Assembly: GCA_964411395.1 (NCBI GenBank) | Contig: CAYPKX010000005.1 | Location: 2,958-50,530 of the forward strand | Reading direction: 5' to 3' | DNA: 47,573 bases | Source of the DNA: an uncultured Eubacteriales bacterium | GTDB lineage: Bacteria > Acidobacteriota > Aminicenantia > Aminicenantales > UBA4085 | Shown here: positions 11,201 through 46,852 of the stretch, piece after piece | Numbering within the stretch: position 1 is the first letter of the stretch | How the letters are laid out: every line of letters begins with the position of its first letter | The notes under the pieces: generated by a model | What the model saw: only the letters and a program-made list of their open reading frames with translations | What the model was told of the DNA's origin: nothing | Database searches by the model: none | Program-made: the position numbers and the translations under genes

Positions 11201-11313
11201 CCCTGAATACTCCCGAGTATGCTCCCCGGCTCCGCTCCGACTTGAAGGGTTTGATCCGGGAAAGCCAGGTCCTGGTCGAATCGAGCTTCCCTCCGGATCG
11301 GGTTTTCCGCTAA
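8218..11313 (+). CDS. Membrane-anchored beta-propeller / Y_Y_Y sensor diguanylate cyclase (GGDEF)
   Basis: 1031 aa with a GTG start. N-terminal anchor NAFLIAGCFVLFPLTAAAS. Many propeller-type repeats (GFLWVGTEDGL, DTLWAGGDGV, GRVWAGTAEGL, GVIWVATARGL). Y_Y_Y-like segment YPKLPAGHYRFEVR, TM VIWSLLFLGLVGLVFW, coiled coil, then a GGDEF domain with GGEEF and an RTAD (RxxD) I-site 5 residues upstream. Confidence 0.85.
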   Translation: MSHPRRRSLKNAFLIAGCFVLFPLTAAASLPEVEDPSMAFGFKPYGADHGLTSTSITALVQDPGGFLWVGTEDGLFRLEGERFRRFGTEEGLPSNSIIDLSIARPRGIWIETNNGIVLWDGGRFRRPSSLGLQGFDDRPGLPLPAGGIIISHYQSQQRFFSPSDGSDFLELKGLPWGGGAYSAFFDPERKLLVLALMDGFWEWNGTNWKSRVLFDASVKNKAVTSVCIDRRGRYWLRQPERLFRLDRFDAPLVQVPTPEPLSAINSTFLAEDALGRIWTNTARSLIWISESGSGVLGERQGLPPGGAFVFFIDSQDTLWAGGDGVFKLLGDFLWKSSTRAQGLPGEVTWSVLRTRDGRVWAGTAEGLAYGTPQGWRIVPGSERFPFMALFEDAKGVVWAGHSPLSETTSGILKILPGRTEARPVAISGGKLTSVVCGIAQGPGDSLWLATTLSGLYRAFPEPGGLKIEALEIPGWPASEGAILNIAGDGSGGLWVAGDPGAAHWDGRSWAVLPKQSLRDQNMISVLPIGPDSAWLAPKNGKQLSRILREGSVLRLTETLPRAHPLSQALIFGLGRDSRGVIWVATARGLLRWENGRVEKYGRNAGLPGEDCAQNALWVDPNGDVWAGLSVGLAHGEMRLWSEPQRPPPAAILDARDGADRSLFDIGPETAIPWKVSSVFFRFAARGSKWTEGIGFQVRLVGLEDAWRTTDVNEARYPKLPAGHYRFEVRTFSAAREFGTAEGVDFWIIAPWWRRWWAQVIWSLLFLGLVGLVFWRRTKVLRRRNEFLEAMIEARTGELEQANEALREAVLIDPLTGLYNRRYLTITMPEEEARLRRMFRNYFMKGISPLNQNEDLILFLGDMDHFKTVNDTHGHAAGDLMIQETAKVLKSVCRTADTLVRWGGEEFILVARRSDREKAGLIAEKLCQAVREHELTLPAGPVLRCTISFGFAAFPILDQHPEAFTWEDTLQLADQCLYEAKNAGRNGWVGVLATGPLNTPEYAPRLRSDLKGLIRESQVLVESSFPPDRVFR

Positions 11314-12485
11314 TCGCTTGAAGGAATCTTCTCGCCGTATTTTTGAATAAAGCCGGCCAGGTCCCTGGCCGCCCGGCGGGCGATGTTTTCCAGGTAACCG
11401 GCCGCCCGGGCCATCGCGTCTTCGAGCGAGGCGGCTTCCGGAAGGATGGGATAGACAGCGGCGAAAAGATCCGGGACATAATCCGAAACCGCTCCGGCGA
11501 CGGAGCCGCAGTAAGCGATACAGGGGCGCTTCGTTTCCCGGGCCAGAGCGGAGATTCCCCAAACCGTTTTTCCCCGCCGGGATTGGGAGTCCAGCCGGCC
11601 CTCGCCGGTGATAATCAGGTCGGCCTGTTTTGCTTTCGATTTGATCTCCGCGGCTTCGATCAGGGCTGCGATTCCGGGTCGAAGATCGGCTCCGAGGAGA
11701 GACAACCCGGCGAATCCGAGCCCCCCGGCCGCGCCTGCACCGGGGACGTCGCGAAATTGATGTCCGACGGCCGCCTCGACCGCATCGGCGTATCGCCCGC
11801 CCGTTTCATCCAGAAATCGGACGGTTTCTGTGTCCGCCCCTTTTTGCGGGCCGAAAACCGCAGCGGCGCCGCGCGGCCCGAGTAGCGGATTATCGACATC
11901 GGCCAAAACGGTGAAGCGGATGTGGCGAATCCGGTCATCGAGCCCTCCAAGGTCGACGGATCGAACCGCGGCCAAATCGAACGGGCGGGGACTGAGGGAT
12001 TGTCCTCCGGCATCAAGAAAGCGGACCCCCAATTCAGCCGCCATCCCCGCGCCCCAGTCATTGGTCGCAGAACCGCCGAGTCCGATCCAAATCCGTTCCG
12101 GTTTCCGGTCGAGGGCGGACTTGATCTGCCGCCCCAGGCCTGCGGTGTTGGCGTGAAGGATGTCCGTCCTCGGCGCGACCAGAGTCAAGCCGCAGGTTTG
12201 GGCCGATTCGAAGAGAATGACCTTTCGGTCCGGCAGAAGGAGCGACTCGGCCCTCACGGGATCGCCGAACGGTCCCGGTGCGGCGGCAAAGAATATTTCT
12301 CCGCCGCAGGCCGAGGCAAAAGCGTCGATCGTTCCTTCGCCGCCGTCGGCCGTCGGAATAATCTCGATCTCCGCTTGAAGTCCGATTTCGGAAAAGCCGG
12401 AACGAATCCCGGCGGCGATCGCCGCTCCCGCTTCGGCCGAGCCGAGGGATCCCTTGAAGCTGTCGACGGCGATCAAAACGCGCAT
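11310..12485 (-). CDS. Glycerate kinase (Gly_kinase family)
   Basis: 391 aa. N-terminus MRVLIAVDSFKGSLGSAEAG and the overall pattern match the GlxK/GarK family as I recall it. SD GGAG ~9 nt upstream. Lies 18 nt downstream of the LarA-like gene. Confidence 0.85.
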   Translation of the reverse strand: MRVLIAVDSFKGSLGSAEAGAAIAAGIRSGFSEIGLQAEIEIIPTADGGEGTIDAFASACGGEIFFAAAPGPFGDPVRAESLLLPDRKVILFESAQTCGLTLVAPRTDILHANTAGLGRQIKSALDRKPERIWIGLGGSATNDWGAGMAAELGVRFLDAGGQSLSPRPFDLAAVRSVDLGGLDDRIRHIRFTVLADVDNPLLGPRGAAAVFGPQKGADTETVRFLDETGGRYADAVEAAVGHQFRDVPGAGAAGGLGFAGLSLLGADLRPGIAALIEAAEIKSKAKQADLIITGEGRLDSQSRRGKTVWGISALARETKRPCIAYCGSVAGAVSDYVPDLFAAVYPILPEAASLEDAMARAAGYLENIARRAARDLAGFIQKYGEKIPSSD

Positions 12486-12503
12486 CGGTCGAATCTCCGA
12501 CGG

Positions 12504-13817
12504 CTACGAGACGAGCGTCTCCGCTTCGGGAACGCAATACGGCCCCTCGGGAAAAACGGCCAGCCGTCCCCCTCCGGCCAAAGCTTCGTCGAGAACGGCC
12601 TGAACGGCCGGTCCGAGCCTGCCCCGCTCGGCGGCATGCCCGGTCAGGGTCAGCCCTGTTAGCGTCGAGGCCGACAGGCCGTCCGAGACGAAGTGCAGTC
12701 CGTGCGGCCCGACTTTTTCCAAAGCCCGGGCCTGCATCTGGAGCTCCCACTGGTCCCTGGTGAAGACACCCGGTTGGTTGATGTCGGCCAGGAAGTCGTT
12801 GAAGCGCCCTGCATATTTTTTTAAAAGATCGGCGTACTCGCGGCTCCCGAGGCCTTCAGAGCAGGTCCCGAAAGCGATGATCGTTCCGCCTTCACGAACG
12901 GCCGGGAGACACGAAACGAATCCCTTGACGCATTGGTAAAACGTCGCATCGAGAGGATATCCGCCGCAACCCGTCAGCACGATATCGGCCGGCTGCCGGA
13001 CCGGCCAGACGGCGCAGGACCGGACATAGTCGCAGGCCGCCTCGTGAGCCGGCTCGAGCGCCCCGGCATAGGCCCGGACCAGGCGGCGGGACCGGTCGAG
13101 AACGACATTGAGGGAGAAGTCGACGCCGGCGGCCCGGGCGACGGAAAGGGATTCTTCGTGAAGGGGATTTCCGGCCAGGACGGCGTTGGTCGCCCGCGGG
13201 TCGGCCAGCAGTTTCGCCCCGTGGAAGTTGCGGACGGTGTCGATCGAGGAAAGGCCGGGGCAGACCGCTTTCCTTCCCCCGGAGTAGCCGGCCATGAAAT
13301 GCGGCTCCACCAGACCAGTCACGAGACGGAAACCGGCTTCGACGAAACGCCGGTTCAGCCGGATGGTCGCCCCGGTGGCGCTCCGTCCGGCGACGGCGGC
13401 CAGGCCGAGGGGATCCTCCGCTCGGTGGTCTTCGATCCGGTAGCGTTCGATGACTTCCTCGCCGAACATTTCCCGCCGTTCTTCGCCGGTGCTCGGCCGG
13501 TGCATGCCCGTGGCCACAAGAACGAGGATTTCAGACCGGGGGACGCCGGCCGAGGCGATTTCGGCCAGAAGCGGCGCCAGAAAATCCCGGTAGGGAATGG
13601 GCCGGGTGAAATCCGAGACGACGACGACAACGTCTCCCGTCCGCCGGCCGGCCAACGCGGTCCGAAGCGGCGCCGTTCCGAGAGGAGCCCGGACGGCGTC
13701 CAGAACGAGGGAGACCGCCGGTTTGATCGTAACGGGGTAGGCTGTGACATACAGCTCGGCGTCGCCCGGAATCCGGAGGATGATCTCCTCCCGTCCGGCC
13801 GGCGCCCTCACGTCCAT
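12504..13817 (-). CDS. LarA-family nickel-pincer-nucleotide-dependent 2-hydroxyacid racemase/epimerase homolog
   Basis: 437 aa. Motifs ATGMHRP, EPH-x7-GGRK and NFHG. The His/Lys/His spacing (+10, +16) equals L. plantarum LarA His174/Lys184/His200 as I recall, and the upstream His sits 67 residues before it (66 in LarA). ATG is 5 nt after the valS stop. Confidence 0.8.
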   Translation of the reverse strand: MDVRAPAGREEIILRIPGDAELYVTAYPVTIKPAVSLVLDAVRAPLGTAPLRTALAGRRTGDVVVVVSDFTRPIPYRDFLAPLLAEIASAGVPRSEILVLVATGMHRPSTGEERREMFGEEVIERYRIEDHRAEDPLGLAAVAGRSATGATIRLNRRFVEAGFRLVTGLVEPHFMAGYSGGRKAVCPGLSSIDTVRNFHGAKLLADPRATNAVLAGNPLHEESLSVARAAGVDFSLNVVLDRSRRLVRAYAGALEPAHEAACDYVRSCAVWPVRQPADIVLTGCGGYPLDATFYQCVKGFVSCLPAVREGGTIIAFGTCSEGLGSREYADLLKKYAGRFNDFLADINQPGVFTRDQWELQMQARALEKVGPHGLHFVSDGLSASTLTGLTLTGHAAERGRLGPAVQAVLDEALAGGGRLAVFPEGPYCVPEAETLVS

Positions 13818-36020: not shown

Positions 36021-36049
36021 TTGACAGAAGTTCTTTAAGACTCTATATT
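36021..36049 (+). promoter_or_regulatory. Sigma70-type promoter (TTGACA-17-TATATT) for the HAD/hemW genes
   Basis: -35 at 36021-36026, 17-nt spacer, -10 at 36044-36049. The TTG ORF-track start (36049) falls inside the -10 element, which favours the ATG at 36070. Confidence 0.55.
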
Positions 36050-36069
36050 TGAATCCCTCGAAGTGTATC

Positions 36070-36756
36070 ATGCTTGATCTATCGATTTTGTCCGAACGGG
36101 ATTCCGAAACCGGAACCTCGTCCGGAAAAAAGGACCTGACCCTCATTTTCGATTTCGACGGCACGATTGCCGATACCATGGCGGCTATCGTCCGTCTGGC
36201 CAACAAGTACAACGCCACTCTCGGGATTCCGCCGCTCGATCAGGACGAAATCGAAGCCATGCGGGGGATGTCGAGCCGGGAGATTCTGAAAAAGCACCGG
36301 ATCCCGCTGGCCAAGCTGCCTTACCTCCTCATCCACTATCAGAAGGAGCTGGGCCGCGAGATCGACAAGCTCGGTCTTTTCCCCGGCATCCGCGAAGTCC
36401 TGCTCGAGCTCAAATCGTTGGGCGTGAAACTGGGAATCCTGACCTCCAATTCGACGGAGAATGTGGAAAAATTTCTCCAGGCCCGGGAGATCGAGGTTTT
36501 CGATTTCGTTCATTCCGAGCGGAACTTCTTCGGCAAAACCCGGGCCCTCAAGCACGTCTTGAAGGAAGAGGATGTCCGCAAGGACGATGTCATCTATGTG
36601 GGCGATGAAGCCCGGGATATCGAGGCCTGCCGTAAAGCCAAAGTCCCGGTGATCGCCGTGAGCTGGGGCTTCCAGCGCCGCGATTTTCTGGCCGACCAGG
36701 GTCCGACGTACATCGTCGATTCGCCCGACGAGATCCTCGAAATCGTCACGGCCTGA
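36070..36756 (+). CDS. HAD-superfamily phosphatase (phosphoglycolate phosphatase-like)
   Basis: Motif I IFDFDGTIADT (DxDxT), motif II LTSN, motif III/IV K...YVGDEARDI. Start chosen downstream of the predicted promoter. Confidence 0.8.
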   Translation: MLDLSILSERDSETGTSSGKKDLTLIFDFDGTIADTMAAIVRLANKYNATLGIPPLDQDEIEAMRGMSSREILKKHRIPLAKLPYLLIHYQKELGREIDKLGLFPGIREVLLELKSLGVKLGILTSNSTENVEKFLQAREIEVFDFVHSERNFFGKTRALKHVLKEEDVRKDDVIYVGDEARDIEACRKAKVPVIAVSWGFQRRDFLADQGPTYIVDSPDEILEIVTA

Positions 36757-36761
36757 CGACC

Positions 36762-37940
36762 ATGGCGTCCGGCGAATCCCAAAAAGCCGGACTCTACATC
36801 CACTTTCCCTTCTGCCGCCGCAAATGCCCTTTTTGCCATTTCGGCTCCGTTCCGGTCGATGCCCATCTGCTGAGATCCCATGTCGCCGCCTGGCGGAAGG
36901 GAATCCTTGCGGAGGCGGAGCTGTTTTCGGCCGGGGCCGCCGTGCCGCTTCCTTCCGGGCTCGAATTCGACACGCTCTATATCGGTGGCGGGACGCCCTC
37001 GTTGATGACGGCGGAGGAGCTGGCCGGATTGCGCAACGACCTGGCCGCCCGCCTTCCGCTCCGGCCGGCCGAGTTCACCCTGGAGGCCAATCCCATCGCC
37101 AGCGCCGGTCCGGAAACGTTCCGGGGTTGGATTCGAGCCGGAGTCACCCGCTTGAGCGTTGGGATTCAGTCCTTCGAGGACGGCGTCCTGCAAATGCTCG
37201 GACGGGAAGCTTCGGCCGCTCAGGCCGAAGCGTTTCTTCTCGGAGCGCGGGAAGCGGGATTTTCGTCGCTGGCCCTGGACCTCATGGTCGGCGTACCGGG
37301 GGAGACGTCCCGGGCCGTCGAACGGACGATCGAAGCCGTTCGCCGGATCGCTCCCGATCACGCCTCCGTCTATTTTCTGGAAAATGTCGAGGGACTGCCG
37401 ATGGAGCGGATCGTCCGGGAGAATCCGGTCGATGACGATGCGGCCGTCGAGGCCTTCGACGAGCTGGCCGCGGCCCTGGCCTCCATGGGCCGGCCGCGTT
37501 ATGAGATTTCCAATTTCGCCCGTCCCGGCCGCGAGTGCCGCCACAATCTGAAATATTGGCGGTACGAGCCGTTCGCCGGTTTCGGCCCTTCGGCCGCTTC
37601 TCATCTGGGCGGGAAGCGCTGGGCAAATGCCGCGGATTTCGAATTCTGGCGGACAGGGGCGGCGGAAGGTCGCCTCCCGGTTTCCGAAGTCGCCGCGCTC
37701 GATCCGGTCGCGGCTGCCCGCGAAGCCCTGGCCGCGGGACTTCGTCTCGTCGAGGGGATCGACCTCGATGTCTTTGCCGAGCGCTTCGGCCTCGACCTGA
37801 TGTTCCGGATCCGGAAGGAAATTGATGAGTTGGACGGCGACGGCCTGATCGAGCGGAAAGGCCGGACGATCCGCATTCCGGAAACGATGCTCAACGTCTC
37901 CAATTCGATTATCGGCCGGCTGGTCGACGCCCTCGCCTGA
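36762..37940 (+). CDS. hemW: Radical SAM heme chaperone HemW / oxygen-independent coproporphyrinogen oxidase-like
   Basis: 392 aa. LYIHFPFCRRKCPFCHF contains CX3CX2C. YIGGGTPS and a C-terminal HemN_C-like region are present. Starts 5 nt after the HAD stop. Confidence 0.85.
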   Translation: MASGESQKAGLYIHFPFCRRKCPFCHFGSVPVDAHLLRSHVAAWRKGILAEAELFSAGAAVPLPSGLEFDTLYIGGGTPSLMTAEELAGLRNDLAARLPLRPAEFTLEANPIASAGPETFRGWIRAGVTRLSVGIQSFEDGVLQMLGREASAAQAEAFLLGAREAGFSSLALDLMVGVPGETSRAVERTIEAVRRIAPDHASVYFLENVEGLPMERIVRENPVDDDAAVEAFDELAAALASMGRPRYEISNFARPGRECRHNLKYWRYEPFAGFGPSAASHLGGKRWANAADFEFWRTGAAEGRLPVSEVAALDPVAAAREALAAGLRLVEGIDLDVFAERFGLDLMFRIRKEIDELDGDGLIERKGRTIRIPETMLNVSNSIIGRLVDALA

Positions 37941-40873: not shown

Positions 40874-41677
40874 TCAGCGATGCTTCGGCTCGTAGATCCT
40901 TCGGGTCGCCCGGAGGGTGTTCCGTTTCGTCGTGAGGCGCTGGGCCAGAACGGCCGCCTTGTTGAGAAGACCGGGGACACAGACTAATTTTCCCCGCTTG
41001 AAGGCCCGAAGCGCCAGGGCGGCGGCCTTCTCCGGGGGCATCAGCAGACGGCTGTCCATCCGGAAATGCCGATCCAGTCCGGATTTGGCGATCATCTCGG
41101 TCGCGATCCCTCCGGGAGCGTAGGTGCAGATCGCGATTCCGTTTCCGCCGTATTCGGACCGCAATCCCTCGCTGAAAGCCTGGACCGCATGCTTGGTCGC
41201 GGCATAGACATTTTGATAGGGAAGGGAAATGAGCCCGCCGAGGCTGGTCACGTTGAGGATCGCCCCGCCGCCCTTCTCCAGAAAATAGCGGAGGAAGGCG
41301 GCCGTTGTTTCGAAAACCGTCAGGCAGTTGACCTGGATGAGCTCCCGGTATTCCTCGAACGGACGGTCGAGCGTTTTTCCGTAAAAGCTGAGTCCGGCGT
41401 TGTTGACCAGGGCAAAGACGTCTCCGCCGGACGTGGCCTTTTCGAAAAGGGTTTTCGCCCCGCCGGGAGAGCCCAAGTCGAGGGCGAGGGCTCGCACTCG
41501 GGCCGGGCAGGCGGTCTCGATCTCGGTCTTCAGGGTTTCGAGCCGATCGGCCCGGCAATCCGCCAGGATGAGGTCGGCCTTTTCCTTGACCGCCAGAAGC
41601 CGAGCCAGGGCCCGTCCAAGGCCTGAGGCGGCCCCGGTGACGACCACCGTCCGGCCGGCAAACGAGAGATGTTTCAT
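40874..41677 (-). CDS. Short-chain dehydrogenase/reductase (SDR)
   Basis: 267 aa. Cofactor motif VVTGAASGLGRALA (TGxxxGxG), NNAG, catalytic YAATKHAV (YxxxK). Confidence 0.85.
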   Translation of the reverse strand: MKHLSFAGRTVVVTGAASGLGRALARLLAVKEKADLILADCRADRLETLKTEIETACPARVRALALDLGSPGGAKTLFEKATSGGDVFALVNNAGLSFYGKTLDRPFEEYRELIQVNCLTVFETTAAFLRYFLEKGGGAILNVTSLGGLISLPYQNVYAATKHAVQAFSEGLRSEYGGNGIAICTYAPGGIATEMIAKSGLDRHFRMDSRLLMPPEKAAALALRAFKRGKLVCVPGLLNKAAVLAQRLTTKRNTLRATRRIYEPKHR

Positions 41678-41769
41678 CGTCCTCGATGGTACGTCAACAG
41701 GCCTCCCGGTTCAATGTCCGGCTGCGTTCCCCCTCTTGCGGGGGGGATAAGGAAATCCCCCGAAGGTTA

Positions 41770-41798
41770 TTGACCTTGGAGAAGATATCGAGTATCAA
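41770..41798 (+). promoter_or_regulatory. Sigma70-type promoter (TTGACC-17-TATCAA) for the glycyl radical enzyme operon
   Basis: -35 at 41770-41775, 17-nt spacer, -10 at 41793-41798. SD AAGGAG at 41815-41820 precedes the ATG at 41827. Confidence 0.45.
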
Positions 41799-41826
41799 GG
41801 AAAGACCGGATCAAAAGGAGAAGTCG

Positions 41827-44328
41827 ATGGCTGCCAAAAAAGAATCGCCGTTCGGCGAACGGGAAATCCGCAAGCGTCCGTCGACCCGGCGGGTTCGGCT
41901 GATGCTTGAACGCTACCTGGCGTCTCCCCTGACGATCGATGTTGAATACATCCGCTTTTATACGGAGGCCCATCGCCGGAGCGAAGGTCGGGGCGCCCTG
42001 GCCCGCCGGGCCGAAGCCCACGCCTCGGCTCTGGAACGGCTGACTCCCGTCATCCGGGAGGGCGAGCCGTTTGTCGGAAGCAAAACACGGTTTGTCCGCG
42101 GAGCCATTCCGTACTGCAATTATGCCAGCCGGTTCGTCCTGAGCGAGTTCAAGCGCGAGGACGCCGAGCATCAGGATCGGGTGATCGATCTCGGGACGGG
42201 CGGAGGAATCGCCAAAACCCGGGAGCTTTCTTCAGCCGGCGACTATGAACTTTTCGGAAGGAAATTTCTTCTGGCCAAAGCGGACAAACCCGTTCTCAAG
42301 GCCTGCGCCGAGTATTTCCAGGGCAAGTGCATGCAGGATGTCGGAGACGCGCTCTGGAAAGCGGAGAAGGCCCGGGCCGAATACATCGAGAAGGGATGGA
42401 AGGCCGGCCTCTACACCGCCCCGCACGACCCGGCCCCGGAGGGGCGCTATGTTCTGGATTTTGAAACCGCCCTGAAGGACGGCTTCGATAAGATCATCAG
42501 CCGGATGAAGAAAAAAATCGCCTCGACCGATCCGGCGGCCCCCGGCGCGGCGGATCAGATCGCCTTCTGGCACGGCGGCATCCGGGTTCTCGAGGCAACC
42601 GTCCGCTGGGCCCGAAATTATGCTTCCGAAGCCCGCCGCCTGGCCCGGACGGAAATGAATCTCCGGCGCCGGGCCGAGCTTCTGGAGATGGCCCGGATCT
42701 GCGATAAAGTGCCGGCCAAACCTCCGAAAACTTTCCGCGAAGCCATGCAGGCCTTCTGGTTCACGTACCTGGCCGGCCACATCGAGGGGGCCCATCTCGG
42801 ATATTCCCCGGGCCGGTTCGATCGGTACATGTTTCCGTTCTTCCGAGCCGATCTCGAAGCCGGGAAAATCACCAGAGCCGAAGCGCTCGAGCTTTTGGAA
42901 GCCCTCCGGGTCAAGATGACCGAGATCGAATACGTCGCCTCCTTTTCCTGGGAAGGCCTGGGCTCGGGAAACTTGTTCCAGAATATGATTCTCGGCGGCT
43001 TGGATGAAAAGGGCCGCCCGGCCGCCAATGCGCTTTCCCTCCTTGTCCTCCAGTCGGCCATCAACTGCCAGACCACTCAGCCGACGCTTTCGATCTGGTA
43101 CGACGAGCGGCTGCCGCAGGCCTTCCTTCGGAAAGCGGTCGATTGCGTCAAGACCGGGTGCGGTTTTCCGGCCTGGTTCAACACCAAGGTCTATATCGAG
43201 CATGAAAAGAGAAAAAGCGGCTTGCCCGAGTCGATGATCCGGAAATATGCAGCCATGGGCGGCTGCACCGAACCGACGATGGAGGGGATGAGCTACGGCA
43301 TCGTCCAGGCCGGTTTCATCAACCACGGCAAGCTTCTCGAGCTGGCCATGTCCGGCGGGACCGATCCCCGGACCGGAGTGGAGTTTGAAAAAACGCCGCG
43401 GCCGTCCGATTATGCGGGCTTGAAGGCGGCCTACAAGGTCCACCTCAAAAGCGCCGTCGACAACTGGCAGAAATACTGGAACCAGGTCATGGCCGGCCAC
43501 CGGCAAACCTGCACCCTGGTCTATTCGTCCACTCTGGTCCGCGATTGCATCGAACGCGGGAAGTCGCTCGACGACGGCGGAGCCCGGGTCAACGGGACGC
43601 CGACGACCTTGAGCAGCGGCCTGGTCAATGTGGTCAATGCCCTGGCCGCCGTCAAACACATCGTCGATGACAACAAGACCGCGTCCTTCGACGAGCTGCG
43701 CGAGGCCTGCGCGAAAAACTGGAAGGGATTCGGACGGCTCCACCGTCGGGCTCTCGACGCTCCGAAATGGGGCAACAACGATGACGCGGCCGACCGGATC
43801 TACGACGAGCTTTACCGGGATTATTGCGATATCGTCGAGCGCGGTCTCAATTACCTGGGCCGGCCCTATGATCCGTCGATGCTGGCCATCAGCACCCACA
43901 CGCCATTCGGCAAAGTCTGCGGGGCGACGCCCGACGGCCGGACGGCCGGCGAGTCTCTGGCCGACGGCGTCACTTCGCCGATGCCCGGGACCGATGTCCG
44001 CGGCCCGCTGGCTGTCCTTCATTCGGCCGGCAAGATCGATCATACCCGCATCCGCGGCGGCCTGCACAACATGAAGTTTCATCCCTCGGTTCTTCACGGG
44101 AGCGCGGGATCGCGAAAGCTCCTGGACCTGATCCGGACATATTTTCAGACTCCCGGTTTCCAGATCCAGTTCAATGTTGTCGACAGCCGGATGCTCCGTG
44201 ACGCTCAGGACCATCCGGACCAATACCGCGATTTGATCGTTCGGGTGGCCGGTTTCTCCGCCTTTTTCGTCGAGCTCGGCAAATCGGTCCAGGACCAGAT
44301 CATCGCCCGGACCGATCACCGGTGGTAA
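41827..44328 (+). CDS. Glycyl radical enzyme, PFL2/eliminase-like class, substrate unassigned
   Basis: 833 aa from the ATG at 41827; the ORF-track start at 41686 is upstream of the promoter and SD. C-terminal glycyl radical fingerprint LIVRVAGFSAFFVELG (Gly codon 44251-44253). Single thiyl-loop Cys in AAMGGCTEP (Cys codon 43264-43266) with Glu two residues later. FQNMILGG is present. Confidence 0.9.
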   Translation: MAAKKESPFGEREIRKRPSTRRVRLMLERYLASPLTIDVEYIRFYTEAHRRSEGRGALARRAEAHASALERLTPVIREGEPFVGSKTRFVRGAIPYCNYASRFVLSEFKREDAEHQDRVIDLGTGGGIAKTRELSSAGDYELFGRKFLLAKADKPVLKACAEYFQGKCMQDVGDALWKAEKARAEYIEKGWKAGLYTAPHDPAPEGRYVLDFETALKDGFDKIISRMKKKIASTDPAAPGAADQIAFWHGGIRVLEATVRWARNYASEARRLARTEMNLRRRAELLEMARICDKVPAKPPKTFREAMQAFWFTYLAGHIEGAHLGYSPGRFDRYMFPFFRADLEAGKITRAEALELLEALRVKMTEIEYVASFSWEGLGSGNLFQNMILGGLDEKGRPAANALSLLVLQSAINCQTTQPTLSIWYDERLPQAFLRKAVDCVKTGCGFPAWFNTKVYIEHEKRKSGLPESMIRKYAAMGGCTEPTMEGMSYGIVQAGFINHGKLLELAMSGGTDPRTGVEFEKTPRPSDYAGLKAAYKVHLKSAVDNWQKYWNQVMAGHRQTCTLVYSSTLVRDCIERGKSLDDGGARVNGTPTTLSSGLVNVVNALAAVKHIVDDNKTASFDELREACAKNWKGFGRLHRRALDAPKWGNNDDAADRIYDELYRDYCDIVERGLNYLGRPYDPSMLAISTHTPFGKVCGATPDGRTAGESLADGVTSPMPGTDVRGPLAVLHSAGKIDHTRIRGGLHNMKFHPSVLHGSAGSRKLLDLIRTYFQTPGFQIQFNVVDSRMLRDAQDHPDQYRDLIVRVAGFSAFFVELGKSVQDQIIARTDHRW

Positions 44329-45233
44329 CCGGCCGGATCTTCAACATCCAGGACCTCTCGGTCCAGGACGGTCCCGGCATTCGGACGACCGTTTTTCTCA
44401 AGGGCTGCCCGCTCCGCTGCGCCTGGTGCTGCAATCCGGAAGGACAAGCCGAGGCCTTCGATCTGCAGCATATCGAGGGCTTGTGCCGGCAATGCCGGCA
44501 GTGTCTGGCCGTTTGTCCTTTTTCGGCGGTCCGGATCGGAGCCGACGGGAGGCCTCGGTTCCGCAGATCGATCTGCCGCACCTGCCTGAAGAAACCGTGT
44601 CTGGACGCCTGTCACGGCCGGGCCCTGCGTTCGTCCGGCCGGGAGGCGCGGGCGGACGAAATCGTCCGCCTCGTGGACGCCAATCTGGCGTATTTCCAAA
44701 ATTCCGGCGGCGGCATCACCCTCTCCGGCGGAGAGCCGCTCCGTCAGCCGGATTTCGCCCGGTCGATTCTTGCGGCTTGCCGCGGTCGGGGGGTATCCGT
44801 CGGACTGGAAACGTGCGGGGGATTCGAATGGGCCAGGGTCGAGGATTTTATCGGCGGCTTCGATTTCTTCTATTTCGACCTCAAGTGTTATGACCCGGCC
44901 CGCCACCGCCGTTTGACCGGCCGGGTCAACGCGCCCCTTCTGGCAAATTTCCGCCGTCTGGCGAAAATCGCCGGCCCGCGGATCATCGTCACTTTGACCC
45001 TCGTCCCCGGCGTCAACGACTTGCCGAAAGAGTGGTCGACGCTGGCCCGGCTTTGCCGCGAAACCGGCGTTCGGCGGATCCGGCTGCTCGAATATCATGA
45101 CCTCGGACGGGAAAAATACCGGTCGCTCGGCCGGACCTATCCCCTTCCCCCTGGCCTCGAGCTCGAGAAAGGGATCAAGGCGGCCTGCGGAAAATTCCTC
45201 CGCTCCAAGGGTTTGAAGATCGAACGGGAATAA
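44322..45233 (+). CDS. Glycyl radical enzyme activating enzyme (radical SAM, with auxiliary ferredoxin-like clusters)
   Basis: 303 aa. The GTG start overlaps the GRE stop by 7 nt. GPGIRTTVFLKGCPLRCAWCCNPE contains CX3CX2C. Extra Cys motifs CRQCRQCLAVCP and CRTCLKKPCLDAC. SAM-binding LSGGEPL. Confidence 0.9.
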   Translation: MVTGRIFNIQDLSVQDGPGIRTTVFLKGCPLRCAWCCNPEGQAEAFDLQHIEGLCRQCRQCLAVCPFSAVRIGADGRPRFRRSICRTCLKKPCLDACHGRALRSSGREARADEIVRLVDANLAYFQNSGGGITLSGGEPLRQPDFARSILAACRGRGVSVGLETCGGFEWARVEDFIGGFDFFYFDLKCYDPARHRRLTGRVNAPLLANFRRLAKIAGPRIIVTLTLVPGVNDLPKEWSTLARLCRETGVRRIRLLEYHDLGREKYRSLGRTYPLPPGLELEKGIKAACGKFLRSKGLKIERE

Positions 45234-45400: not shown

Positions 45401-46279
45401 ATGAAAACGAAAAACCTGTTTATTCTTCTCTCCTGTGTTCTTTTTCTTCTGATCCCGTCGGCCGCCTTTCCGTCCGGGCTTTCCCTCGGATTCCGGTTTT
45501 ACGGCGGTCTCCACTCCCTTTCGGGCGGAGACCTGAACACGGGAATGGCCGGGCAGAGCAAGCTCTTTGAGATCCAGGCCGGCCTGGCCGGGATGGATGT
45601 TGACGGGGAATTTGAGGATGTTCGCTGGGGTTTCATCGGGGGAGGGGACCTGATGATTTCCTTCGCCCCTTGGCTCGGGCTGGAAATCGGCGGCGGATAC
45701 GTCTCGGCTTCCAAGGAATCGGTCATCGCCTATGAGGGCGCGCCGGACGAGGGCTCGTGGACGGTCAAGCCTTCCGCCGCGGCCGTGCCGATCCGGGCGG
45801 GATTGTTTGTTCTTTTCCCGATCGGCTCCGGTTTATCCGTGTCCGTCCACGGAGGCGCGGCGTATCACCTGGCTACGGTGGAAACTGCGTTTCGTGTCGA
45901 AAGCGAAGTCTCCGGGCTATGGCGCGGGGAGAGCGTGAAGGCCTCCGCCGAGGGAATCGGCTTCTACGGCGGCTTGGGGCTGGAGCTTCGGATCGCTCCG
46001 GGCGTCTTCTTTCTCCTCGAGGCTCAGGGCCGGCTGGCCCGCCTGGATGGATTCGAAGGCGACCTTGCGATGACCGACAGCCTCGGTTCGGCGGACGGGC
46101 GTTCGGGCAAGCTCTACCATTTCGCGGTGGATCTTCCCTCGGGGCTTTCGGAGTCCGGCCTGAATTGGCTTTCGATTTATGAGGAGGCGCCTGCCGGATA
46201 CGGTCTTTCCGAGGTCCGGCCGGCTCAAGTGGATTTCGGCGGCCTCGGATTCGCGGCCGGCTTCGTCATCCGGCTTTGA
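45401..46279 (+). CDS. Putative outer-membrane beta-barrel protein (hypothetical)
   Basis: 292 aa with SD AAGGAGGG. Signal peptide MKTKNLFILLSCVLFLLIPSAAFP. Gly/aromatic-rich alternating strands (GLSLGFRFYGGL, GFYGGLGLELRI, GGLGFAAGFVIRL at the C-terminus). Confidence 0.5.
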   Translation: MKTKNLFILLSCVLFLLIPSAAFPSGLSLGFRFYGGLHSLSGGDLNTGMAGQSKLFEIQAGLAGMDVDGEFEDVRWGFIGGGDLMISFAPWLGLEIGGGYVSASKESVIAYEGAPDEGSWTVKPSAAAVPIRAGLFVLFPIGSGLSVSVHGGAAYHLATVETAFRVESEVSGLWRGESVKASAEGIGFYGGLGLELRIAPGVFFLLEAQGRLARLDGFEGDLAMTDSLGSADGRSGKLYHFAVDLPSGLSESGLNWLSIYEEAPAGYGLSEVRPAQVDFGGLGFAAGFVIRL

Positions 46280-46324: not shown

Positions 46325-46852
46325 ATGAATAAAACGACAAAGGGAATCGTGATGGGGTTTGTTTTCATCGGTTTGAATCTCGGGCTGGGAGCGGATTTCG
46401 GAAGCGGAGTTGTCTCCGTTTCGCCGGCCGCGATGCAGCCGAACGATTACCAGATGGGATCCCTCAACTGGTATACCTATCCGCATGAGGCGTTTTACAA
46501 CAGCGGTTATCCCAACAGCGCGTATATGGAAGCCCCGATTTCGTTGCCGCACATGGCGACGATAACCGGCTTTTCGGCCGTGGTCACGGATAACGGTTCC
46601 GGACCCGACGACGAAATCTGGGTGATTCTCCGTCGGCAGAACATCGCCACGGGCGTGCTGGAGAGCATCGGGATGGTGCAGACGACGGCCGGCTTCTCGT
46701 CGTCCATCCGCCAGACCCTGACCGACTCTTCCCTCTACTACACGACGATCGACAACGAGAATTACACCTATTCCGTCCTGGTCAGGTTTTACCTTCCCCG
46801 CTCCTATATCAAGTTCCATGGGGCGAAGGTCCAGTACTGGTCGGTTCTTTGA
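46325..46852 (+). CDS. Hypothetical small secreted/anchored protein
   Basis: 175 aa with SD AAGGAGGA. N-terminal hydrophobic segment GIVMGFVFIGLNLGL. Beta-rich, Tyr/Thr/Ser-rich. No family recognised. Confidence 0.45.
   Translation: MNKTTKGIVMGFVFIGLNLGLGADFGSGVVSVSPAAMQPNDYQMGSLNWYTYPHEAFYNSGYPNSAYMEAPISLPHMATITGFSAVVTDNGSGPDDEIWVILRRQNIATGVLESIGMVQTTAGFSSSIRQTLTDSSLYYTTIDNENYTYSVLVRFYLPRSYIKFHGAKVQYWSVL

Follow-up and report, generated by a model that had tools for sequence, protein, structure and literature searches.

A glycyl radical enzyme family of bacteria, archaea and protists related to indoleacetate decarboxylase

A 47,573-nucleotide stretch of DNA from an uncultured bacterium (assembly GCA_964411395.1, contig CAYPKX010000005.1, positions 2,958 to 50,530; hereafter the window) encodes an oxygen-sensitive glycyl radical enzyme (GRE; 41827..44328, plus strand) and, directly downstream, a radical S-adenosylmethionine (SAM) activating enzyme (activase; 44322..45233, plus strand). 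We find that this gene pair belongs to a discrete GRE family that carries an invariant GGCTEP motif, occurs in bacteria, archaea and protists, and is related to indoleacetate decarboxylase (IAD), which forms skatole. From homology to IAD and to 4-hydroxyphenylacetate decarboxylase (HPAD) we infer what kind of substrate is used and each step of the chemistry, and propose that the family probably decarboxylates an arylacetate through IAD-type, Kolbe-type chemistry, the substrate itself being unsettled. A review of June 2026 names HPAD, PAD, IAD and AAD as the four decarboxylases among GREs (PMC13450708), and a literature search returned no paper tying the GGCTEP clade to a function; on these grounds the gene pair is an uncharacterized member of a known enzyme class and not a new kind of system.

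The GRE gene lies within an open reading frame (ORF) at 41686-44328 on the plus strand, and the ORF listing and translation place an internal ATG at 41827 that yields an 833-aa protein. We take this ATG as the real start because homologs are 826–835 aa long and align from residue 1 of the 833-aa form; a ribosome-binding site, AAAGGAG, can be read in the sequence immediately upstream (41814-41820). An alternative start at ATG 41686 would lengthen the protein to 880 aa, but the added segment (41686-41826) has no counterpart in any homolog and overlaps a promoter-like site, and is therefore almost certainly untranslated. Pfam assigns PFL-like (E 1.4e-150) and Gly_radical (E 1.2e-29) domains, and the AlphaFold2 model (pLDDT 88, pTM 0.92) has the GRE fold, with TM-scores of 0.83–0.90 to solved GREs. 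The translation agrees with the motifs reported in a first-pass annotation of this DNA. The Cys loop AAMGGCTEP (residues 475-483; 43249..43275, plus strand) aligns to IAD Cys500/Glu502 and contains the predicted thiyl radical site Cys480 (43264-43266) and the proposed proton relay Glu482 (43270-43272), while the second half of the Cys-loop hairpin supplies Tyr490, Gln494 and Phe497 at the polar end of the pocket (43294..43317, plus strand), where IAD has His, His and Phe. The glycyl radical loop RVAGFSAFF (residues 806-814; 44242..44268, plus strand), identified by Pfam Gly_radical and translation, includes Gly809 (44251-44253), 329 residues from Cys480. Because the loop has a single Cys (GGC) with no Cys-Cys pair, and TIGR01255 scores only 125 bits, the enzyme is not a formate-lyase, as that annotation had also concluded. 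The hallmarks of the GRE superfamily are present, namely an RVxG[FY] glycyl motif, a Cys-loop Cys in a ten-stranded PFL-like barrel and an adjoining activase.

The 303-aa activase begins at a GTG at 44322 and, with 284 bits, passes the TIGR02494 cut-off of 174. Its Cys positions define a CX3CX2C motif (C29/C33/C36; 44406-44429, plus strand) and two auxiliary four-Cys clusters (C55/58/61/65 and C85/88/93/97; 44484-44612, plus strand). The activase start overlaps the end of the GRE gene by 7 nt, which leaves no room for an intervening small-subunit ORF. The coordinates, the 7-nt overlap and the two auxiliary clusters match the first-pass annotation, and its pairing of the GRE with a cognate activase is borne out by the Pfam domains, the TIGR02494 score and the adjacency of the two genes in 41 of 45 related loci.

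We compared the GRE with curated models of characterized enzymes. The top NCBIfam match is IAD (NF033718), aligned end to end at 776.9 bits, ahead of a generic PFL2 model at 547 bits and the HypD, HpsG and CutC models at about 400 bits. On the same models P0123, from a group 41–42% identical to the GRE, scores 1187.7 bits, above the IAD cut-off, and is a true IAD; P0133, at 1725 bits, is likewise a true HPAD. The N-terminal ~140 residues of the GRE align only with decarboxylase-type GREs. In a neighbor-joining tree of 147 sequences the GGCTEP family is monophyletic with P0125 as its sister, and together they adjoin the IAD/HPAD clade. P0125 is an 847-aa, 39%-identical protein that shares GGCTEP, Gln at position 494 and the same pocket residues, and has an unusual glycyl loop, RVSGFTAKW. 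With Foldseek, HPAD had the top TM-score and aligned over the greatest length, but since all GREs score TM 0.83–0.90 the fold search is uninformative on class. A single-sequence search of the PDB placed glycerol dehydratase and CutC on top, a second PDB search with the C-terminal half of the GRE added nothing, and BSS and MASS structures (262–266 bits) were among the weakest PFL2-type GRE matches. One further protein with a GGCLQP loop (P0253) was considered as a PhdB homolog and rejected, since the PhdB marker residues have no match in it.

We next examined the active-site pocket. In IAD a hydrophobic wall of Phe401, Phe517, Leu616, Leu730 and Ile731 surrounds indole-3-acetate, with Arg226 stacked against the ring and Trp392 serving as the gate; His514 hydrogen bonds to the indole N-H, and Cys500/Glu502 form the catalytic pair (PMC13232127). 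We transferred these residues from the cryo-EM paper through the Faecalicatena contorta IAD found in a genome scan, whose offsets to Olsenella uli numbering are +1 or +2, with Ile731 mapping 1–2 positions off the expected site. Nine of the ten IAD contact and gate residues are identical in the GRE (Arg207, Trp375, Phe384, Cys480, Glu482, Phe497, Leu595, Leu686 and Ile688), and all nine are invariant across 114–119 family members save position 384, which is Phe or Tyr. The family-invariant Arg207 (42445..42447, plus strand) corresponds to the indole-stacking Arg226 of IAD and, in an alignment to 1r8w, to His164 of glycerol dehydratase. The lone mismatch is IAD His514, which is replaced by Gln494: Gln occupies this position in 114/114 family sequences and His in 13/13 sequences of the IAD clade. 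A second Cys-loop His of IAD is replaced by Tyr490 in 111 of 114 family members. The position of the HPAD phenol-binding Glu637 is Leu595 in the GRE, and the true HPAD P0133 has Glu there. This residue mapping points to an IAD-type pocket, hydrophobic and suited to an aromatic acid, whose polar end has been remodeled.

The family was delimited by a search covering 5.8 billion proteins, together with an HMMER search, run without filters, of 1.84 billion representatives clustered at 50% identity. The first yielded at least 120 clusters 55–85% identical to the GRE over its full length. GGCTEP is present in 121/121 family members, counting the 120 listed clusters and one more sequence from the window protein's own cluster. 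The first-pass annotation had singled out the Thr of the Cys-Thr-Glu loop as distinctive; since it is invariant in the family and also found in P0125, it is a clade signature and not evidence of new chemistry. Among the representatives, the sole full-length match above 42% identity was P0017 (69%), the other listed matches at or above 50% being fragments or partial sequences, and the next full-length representatives were 41–42% identical. With full-length identity falling to this level beyond the family, we consider the family discrete and tightly conserved.

Genome loci, mostly at 58–70% identity, place the family among bacteria in Ignavibacteria, Brocadiaceae (anammox), other Planctomycetota, Synergistaceae, Cloacimonadales, Thermotogaceae and Kapaibacterium, and among archaea in Methanoperedens and the Asgard Hermod-, Hod- and Heimdallarchaeota. 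Anoxybacter fermentans (WP_127016394.1) is a cultured carrier. Cassettes in archaeal metagenome-assembled genomes (MAGs), including Promethearchaeota, encode GREs 66–69% identical to the window protein (L002, L011, L017, L020–L022, L024, L026 and L027). In the protists Paratrimastix pyriformis, Pelomyxa schiedti and Hexamita inflata (P0064, P0065 and P0086; 57–61% identity) the GRE is fused to the activase, and in Paratrimastix the activase domain spans residues 840–1119 and is 43% identical to the window activase. The domain order of these protist fusions is the gene order of the bacterial operon. The valyl-tRNA synthetase (ValRS) encoded in the window shares 85% identity with Candidatus Aminicenantes MAG proteins, pointing to an Aminicenantes host for the window, and its taxon-named matches are almost all from Aminicenantes/Acidobacteriota, at identities comparable to those of the GRE. 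The spread of the GRE across phyla, set against a ValRS whose named matches are almost all Aminicenantes/Acidobacteriota, suggests that the enzyme-activase cassette moves horizontally, and archaeal identities of 66–69%, as high as those of ValRS to the proteins named Aminicenantes/Acidobacteriota, imply transfer between domains.

To survey gene context, we predicted the ORFs of 45 close loci and grouped all neighbors into clusters. The activase was the only neighbor family common across taxa, lying directly downstream of the GRE in 41 of the 45 loci, with most of the rest cut by contig ends. One locus (L081, encoding the 71%-identical P0006) has no activase within the ~1.1 kb 3′ of the GRE before the contig ends, and genes for a B12-binding radical SAM protein and a polysaccharide deacetylase upstream. 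A Pfam census of 131 flanking proteins recorded 178 families, none in more than five proteins, and contained no adh_short, aldehyde dehydrogenase or microcompartment family. Within the 47.5-kb window itself, the Pfam-scanned ORFs include no microcompartment, aldehyde dehydrogenase, phosphotransacylase or small-subunit genes, in line with the first-pass description of a locus devoid of pathway context; this absence is nevertheless not special to the locus, for it holds across the whole family, and IAD likewise lacks a small subunit. The conserved lack of context would fit a terminal decarboxylase with a volatile product, for which no downstream enzymes are needed. Loci L043–L062 were set aside as context for the family because they belong to other GRE clades; among them is a separate clade with a Cys-Val-Asp loop (P0127-like, 36–38% identical; L043–L045 and L062; Syntrophus, Syntrophobacter and Thermoanaerobacterales MAGs), whose members have several neighbor families in common.

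Upstream of the GRE, a short-chain dehydrogenase/reductase (SDR) gene (40874-41677, minus strand) is divergently transcribed across a 149-bp spacer (41678..41826), and the first-pass annotation had offered its product as a possible partner. When the window neighbors were searched by BLAST against all ORFs of 62 related loci, the SDR, MFS, NHL, HAD, HemN-like and outer-membrane proteins had 0 adjacent homologs in 60 other loci. A relative with an 85%-identical GRE retains the HAD, HemN, MFS, SDR, GRE and activase genes, with its NHL gene located elsewhere and its flanks rearranged. At 79% identity (P0003; L080:3-785), a SAM synthetase (MetK) gene on the same strand lies upstream in place of the SDR. 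Being kept at 85% and replaced at 79% identity, the SDR adjacency reflects recent shared ancestry and not functional partnership, and the proposed partner falls away; with no adjacent homologs and no enrichment in the census, we rejected SDR, MFS and NHL alike as functional partners. The MetK gene beside the P0003 pair is a single instance, perhaps coincidental or perhaps a source of SAM for the activase. The interest of the family is its breadth and its near-IAD pocket, to which the loop Thr and the SDR contribute nothing.

By analogy with IAD and HPAD, catalysis would begin when the activase, using its [4Fe-4S] cluster and SAM, abstracts a hydrogen from Gly809 to leave a stable glycyl radical, which would be handed to Cys480 at each turnover. 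The arylacetate would bind with its carboxylate adjoining Cys480 and its ring in the hydrophobic pocket of Phe/Tyr384, Phe497, Leu595, Leu686 and Ile688, capped by Arg207 and gated by Trp375. A Cys480 thiyl radical may then oxidize the carboxylate by one electron in a Kolbe-type step, with loss of CO2 from the oxidized arylacetate; Glu482, probably via water, would re-protonate the Cys480 thiolate, and Cys480 would give a hydrogen atom to the benzylic-type product radical to form a methyl-arene. Such a product could diffuse away, so that no downstream genes would be needed. With IAD His514 and a nearby His replaced by Gln494 and Tyr490, the substrate could be indole-3-acetate or a different arylacetate.

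Several results weigh against arylacetate decarboxylation. At 777 bits on the best curated model, IAD, the GRE does not reach the cut-off of 1100 bits, and it also falls below the cut-off of 1150 on the HPAD model (NF033715; 544 bits); by the same measure, the characterized high-identity ortholog that the first-pass annotation said would make this a known enzyme did not appear. The tree was built by neighbor joining with no bootstrap and with the PhdB sequence left out, the pocket mapping derives from sequence alignment and not from coordinates, and the fold comparison does not discriminate, with propanediol dehydratase and HPAD tied. Thirty positions are conserved in both the family and IAD with differing residues, several of them on pocket-forming segments (T481, Y490, Q494, S684, A687 and G744–L746). 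The invariant Gln494 argues against plain indoleacetate specificity because in IAD an H514A substitution lowers kcat 66-fold and raises Km 70-fold (PMC9248008). Indole-3-acetate is retained among the candidate substrates since Gln can accept an N-H hydrogen bond, and the invariant Gln/Tyr pair suggests a different preferred arylacetate. An alternative is a non-arylacetate reaction on a common metabolite, a new GRE reaction or substrate class in which the IAD-like residues would be an inherited scaffold. Such a reading would account for a family that stands sharply apart from every characterized GRE (at most 42% identity), bears its own invariant signatures in GGCTEP, Tyr490, Gln494 and a 743–746 loop, and is unusually conserved over three domains of life, and the 2026 review leaves room for it in describing entire clades of GREs, and every PFL-like GRE of archaea, as uncharacterized (PMC13450708). 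We nevertheless judge it less likely, given that the nine matching, invariant residues include the stacking Arg and the four wall residues, which are not common to HPAD and other neighboring clades, and that no conserved neighbor hints at another pathway.

The first-pass annotation had placed the enzyme in an eliminase/decarboxylase branch and tentatively imagined the SDR reducing or oxidizing a carbonyl product. The decarboxylase half of that placement is upheld by the IAD/HPAD lineage, the N-terminal ~140 residues and the pocket. The eliminase half, a 1,2-eliminase of dehydratase or lyase type, draws on the top PDB matches by single-sequence search and on an SDR-GRE-activase order that persists in the 85%-identical relative even though its flanks are rearranged, yet the pocket is hydrophobic and the alignment to 1r8w replaces the key polar residues, with His164 becoming Arg207, Asp447 becoming Gln494 and His281/Ser282 becoming Leu324/Gly325. 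Asp447 of glycerol dehydratase is a hydroxyl-binding residue. His164 is the general acid that protonates the leaving hydroxyl, and the Cys-x-Glu loop that the GRE displays is common to all eliminases (PMC13450708). With the SDR giving way to SAM synthetase at 79% identity, no adjacent SDR in the 60 other loci, and none of the expected families in the flank census, we regard an eliminase as quite improbable. Less probable still is an X-succinate synthase that adds a hydrocarbon to fumarate, as proposed for some archaeal GREs. A single loop Cys preceded by Gly, an activase with two auxiliary clusters and the existence of Asgard archaeal members would all be compatible with it, and Hermodarchaeota GREs have been annotated Ass/Bss on similar grounds (PMC8163825), but BssA has Ser and not Glu after the loop Cys (PMC7079210) where the GRE has Glu482, the overlapping GRE and activase genes come with no beta/gamma small-subunit ORFs, and matches to BSS and MASS structures are weak. 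We considered the Hermodarchaeota Ass/Bss genes themselves as family members and rejected them: GGCTEP does not occur in the supplementary sequence files of that paper, the one sequence it shows differs, and its proteins probably form a different family. Even jointly, the eliminase and succinate-synthase readings are improbable, and arylacetate decarboxylation is the account we favor.

As of 2018, PhdB was known solely from two metagenomic samples, in bacteria that had not been cultivated, and IAD has been recorded in a small number of Firmicutes and Coriobacteriia from gut and sediment (PMC6181972). The GGCTEP clade is far more widespread than PhdB or IAD and has an IAD-like pocket. Tentatively, and with some doubt, we suggest that it either acts on a substrate outside those of the four characterized GRE decarboxylases or is the missing, widespread biogenic source of toluene-, skatole- or cresol-type volatiles in digesters, protist hosts and anoxic sediments. 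Toluene, skatole and p-cresol, all volatile, are products of GRE decarboxylases and matter to toxicology, ecology and biotechnology. The review reports no characterized function for any archaeal PFL-like GRE (PMC13450708), and a genomics paper on Preaxostyla mentions neither glycyl radical enzymes nor HPAD; if true, the proposal would be the first case of a documented PFL-like GRE function that extends from bacteria to archaea and eukaryotes. One characterized member would assign a function to the whole family, at least 120 sequence clusters, show whether a single His-to-Gln change retunes specificity, and address the archaeal PFL-like GRE gap noted in the review (PMC13450708). The cultured carrier Anoxybacter fermentans makes the family directly testable.

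Other features of the window lie around the cassette. The 149-bp spacer contains, as the first-pass annotation reported, TTGACC (41770-41775) and TATCAA (41793-41798) separated by a 17-nt gap, as a sequence match only; a consensus promoter scan did not call this site because the second hexamer has no final T, and an Rfam scan of the window found no RNA element. The scanned ORFs include sensor kinases, a GGDEF protein, ValRS, an ABC/FtsX transporter, threonine synthase and an amidase. Upstream, genes for a HAD-family hydrolase and a HemN-like radical SAM protein (oxygen-independent coproporphyrinogen oxidase-like) lie in tandem at 36049-37940, a pair kept in the 85%-identical relative and not elsewhere. 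The activase is followed by a gene for an outer-membrane beta-barrel protein (45401-46279) and a 175-aa ORF with no Pfam match (46325-46852), neither conserved beside the cassette in relatives. Adjoining glycerate kinase and LarA-like (lactate racemase family) genes on the minus strand (11310-13817) are unrelated to the GRE.

We compared the window enzyme with characterized GREs. B12-independent glycerol and propanediol dehydratases (PDB 1R8W, 5I2G) have the same fold and Cys-x-Glu loop and a comparable distance from Cys to Gly, but their catalytic His164/Asp447 correspond to Arg207/Gln494, their N-terminal region is unalignable, and the aldehyde-processing and microcompartment genes are absent beside the GRE in the scanned window ORFs and flank census. 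The toluene-forming phenylacetate decarboxylase (PhdB/PAD) of Acidobacteria strain Tolsyn is, like the GRE, a stand-alone enzyme with an activase, of similar length and Cys-to-Gly spacing (333 versus 329), and its host is an environmental Acidobacteria, with the window ValRS best matching Aminicenantes MAGs. PhdB has a Cys-x-Gln loop in which Gln484, together with Trp495 and Tyr691, is essential (PMC7079210, PMC13450708), whereas the GRE has Cys-Thr-Glu, and by offset from the loop Cys and radical Gly the Trp495 and Tyr691 positions are Val493/Gln494 and Leu686 in the GRE.

HPAD (HpdBC; PDB 2Y8N/2YAJ) belongs to the same lineage as the GRE and shares the Cys-x-Glu loop and Arg at position 207. 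In contrast to the GRE cassette, HPAD has a gene for a small [4Fe-4S] subunit between the large subunit and the activase, and its Cys-loop hairpin bears two insertions absent from the GRE. IAD, which appears to share the carboxylate-to-Cys binding mode of HPAD (PMC13232127), is the closest counterpart. The IAD of Olsenella uli and O. scatoligenes (NF033718; cryo-EM PDB 10AL) resembles the GRE in its lack of a small subunit, its activase with two auxiliary clusters and its Cys-x-Glu loop; it is the best curated match over the full length, N-terminal region included, and the IAD and HPAD clade is the family's sister lineage in the tree. IAD needs no small subunit, and its only extra neighbor reported is an MFS transporter in some clusters (PMC6181972); this IAD-type transporter is not linked to the GRE, and the window MFS has no similarity to anything in IAD loci. 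At 35–41% identity, the GRE keeps Arg226, Trp392, Phe401, Phe517, Leu616, Leu730 and Ile73x of IAD and departs from it in having Gln494 for His514, Tyr490 for the neighboring His and Thr481 for Val, in being 35 residues shorter, and in a Cys-to-Gly spacing of 329 versus 353. Whereas IAD is found in Clostridia and Coriobacteriia, the GRE family is carried by environmental bacteria, archaea and protists.

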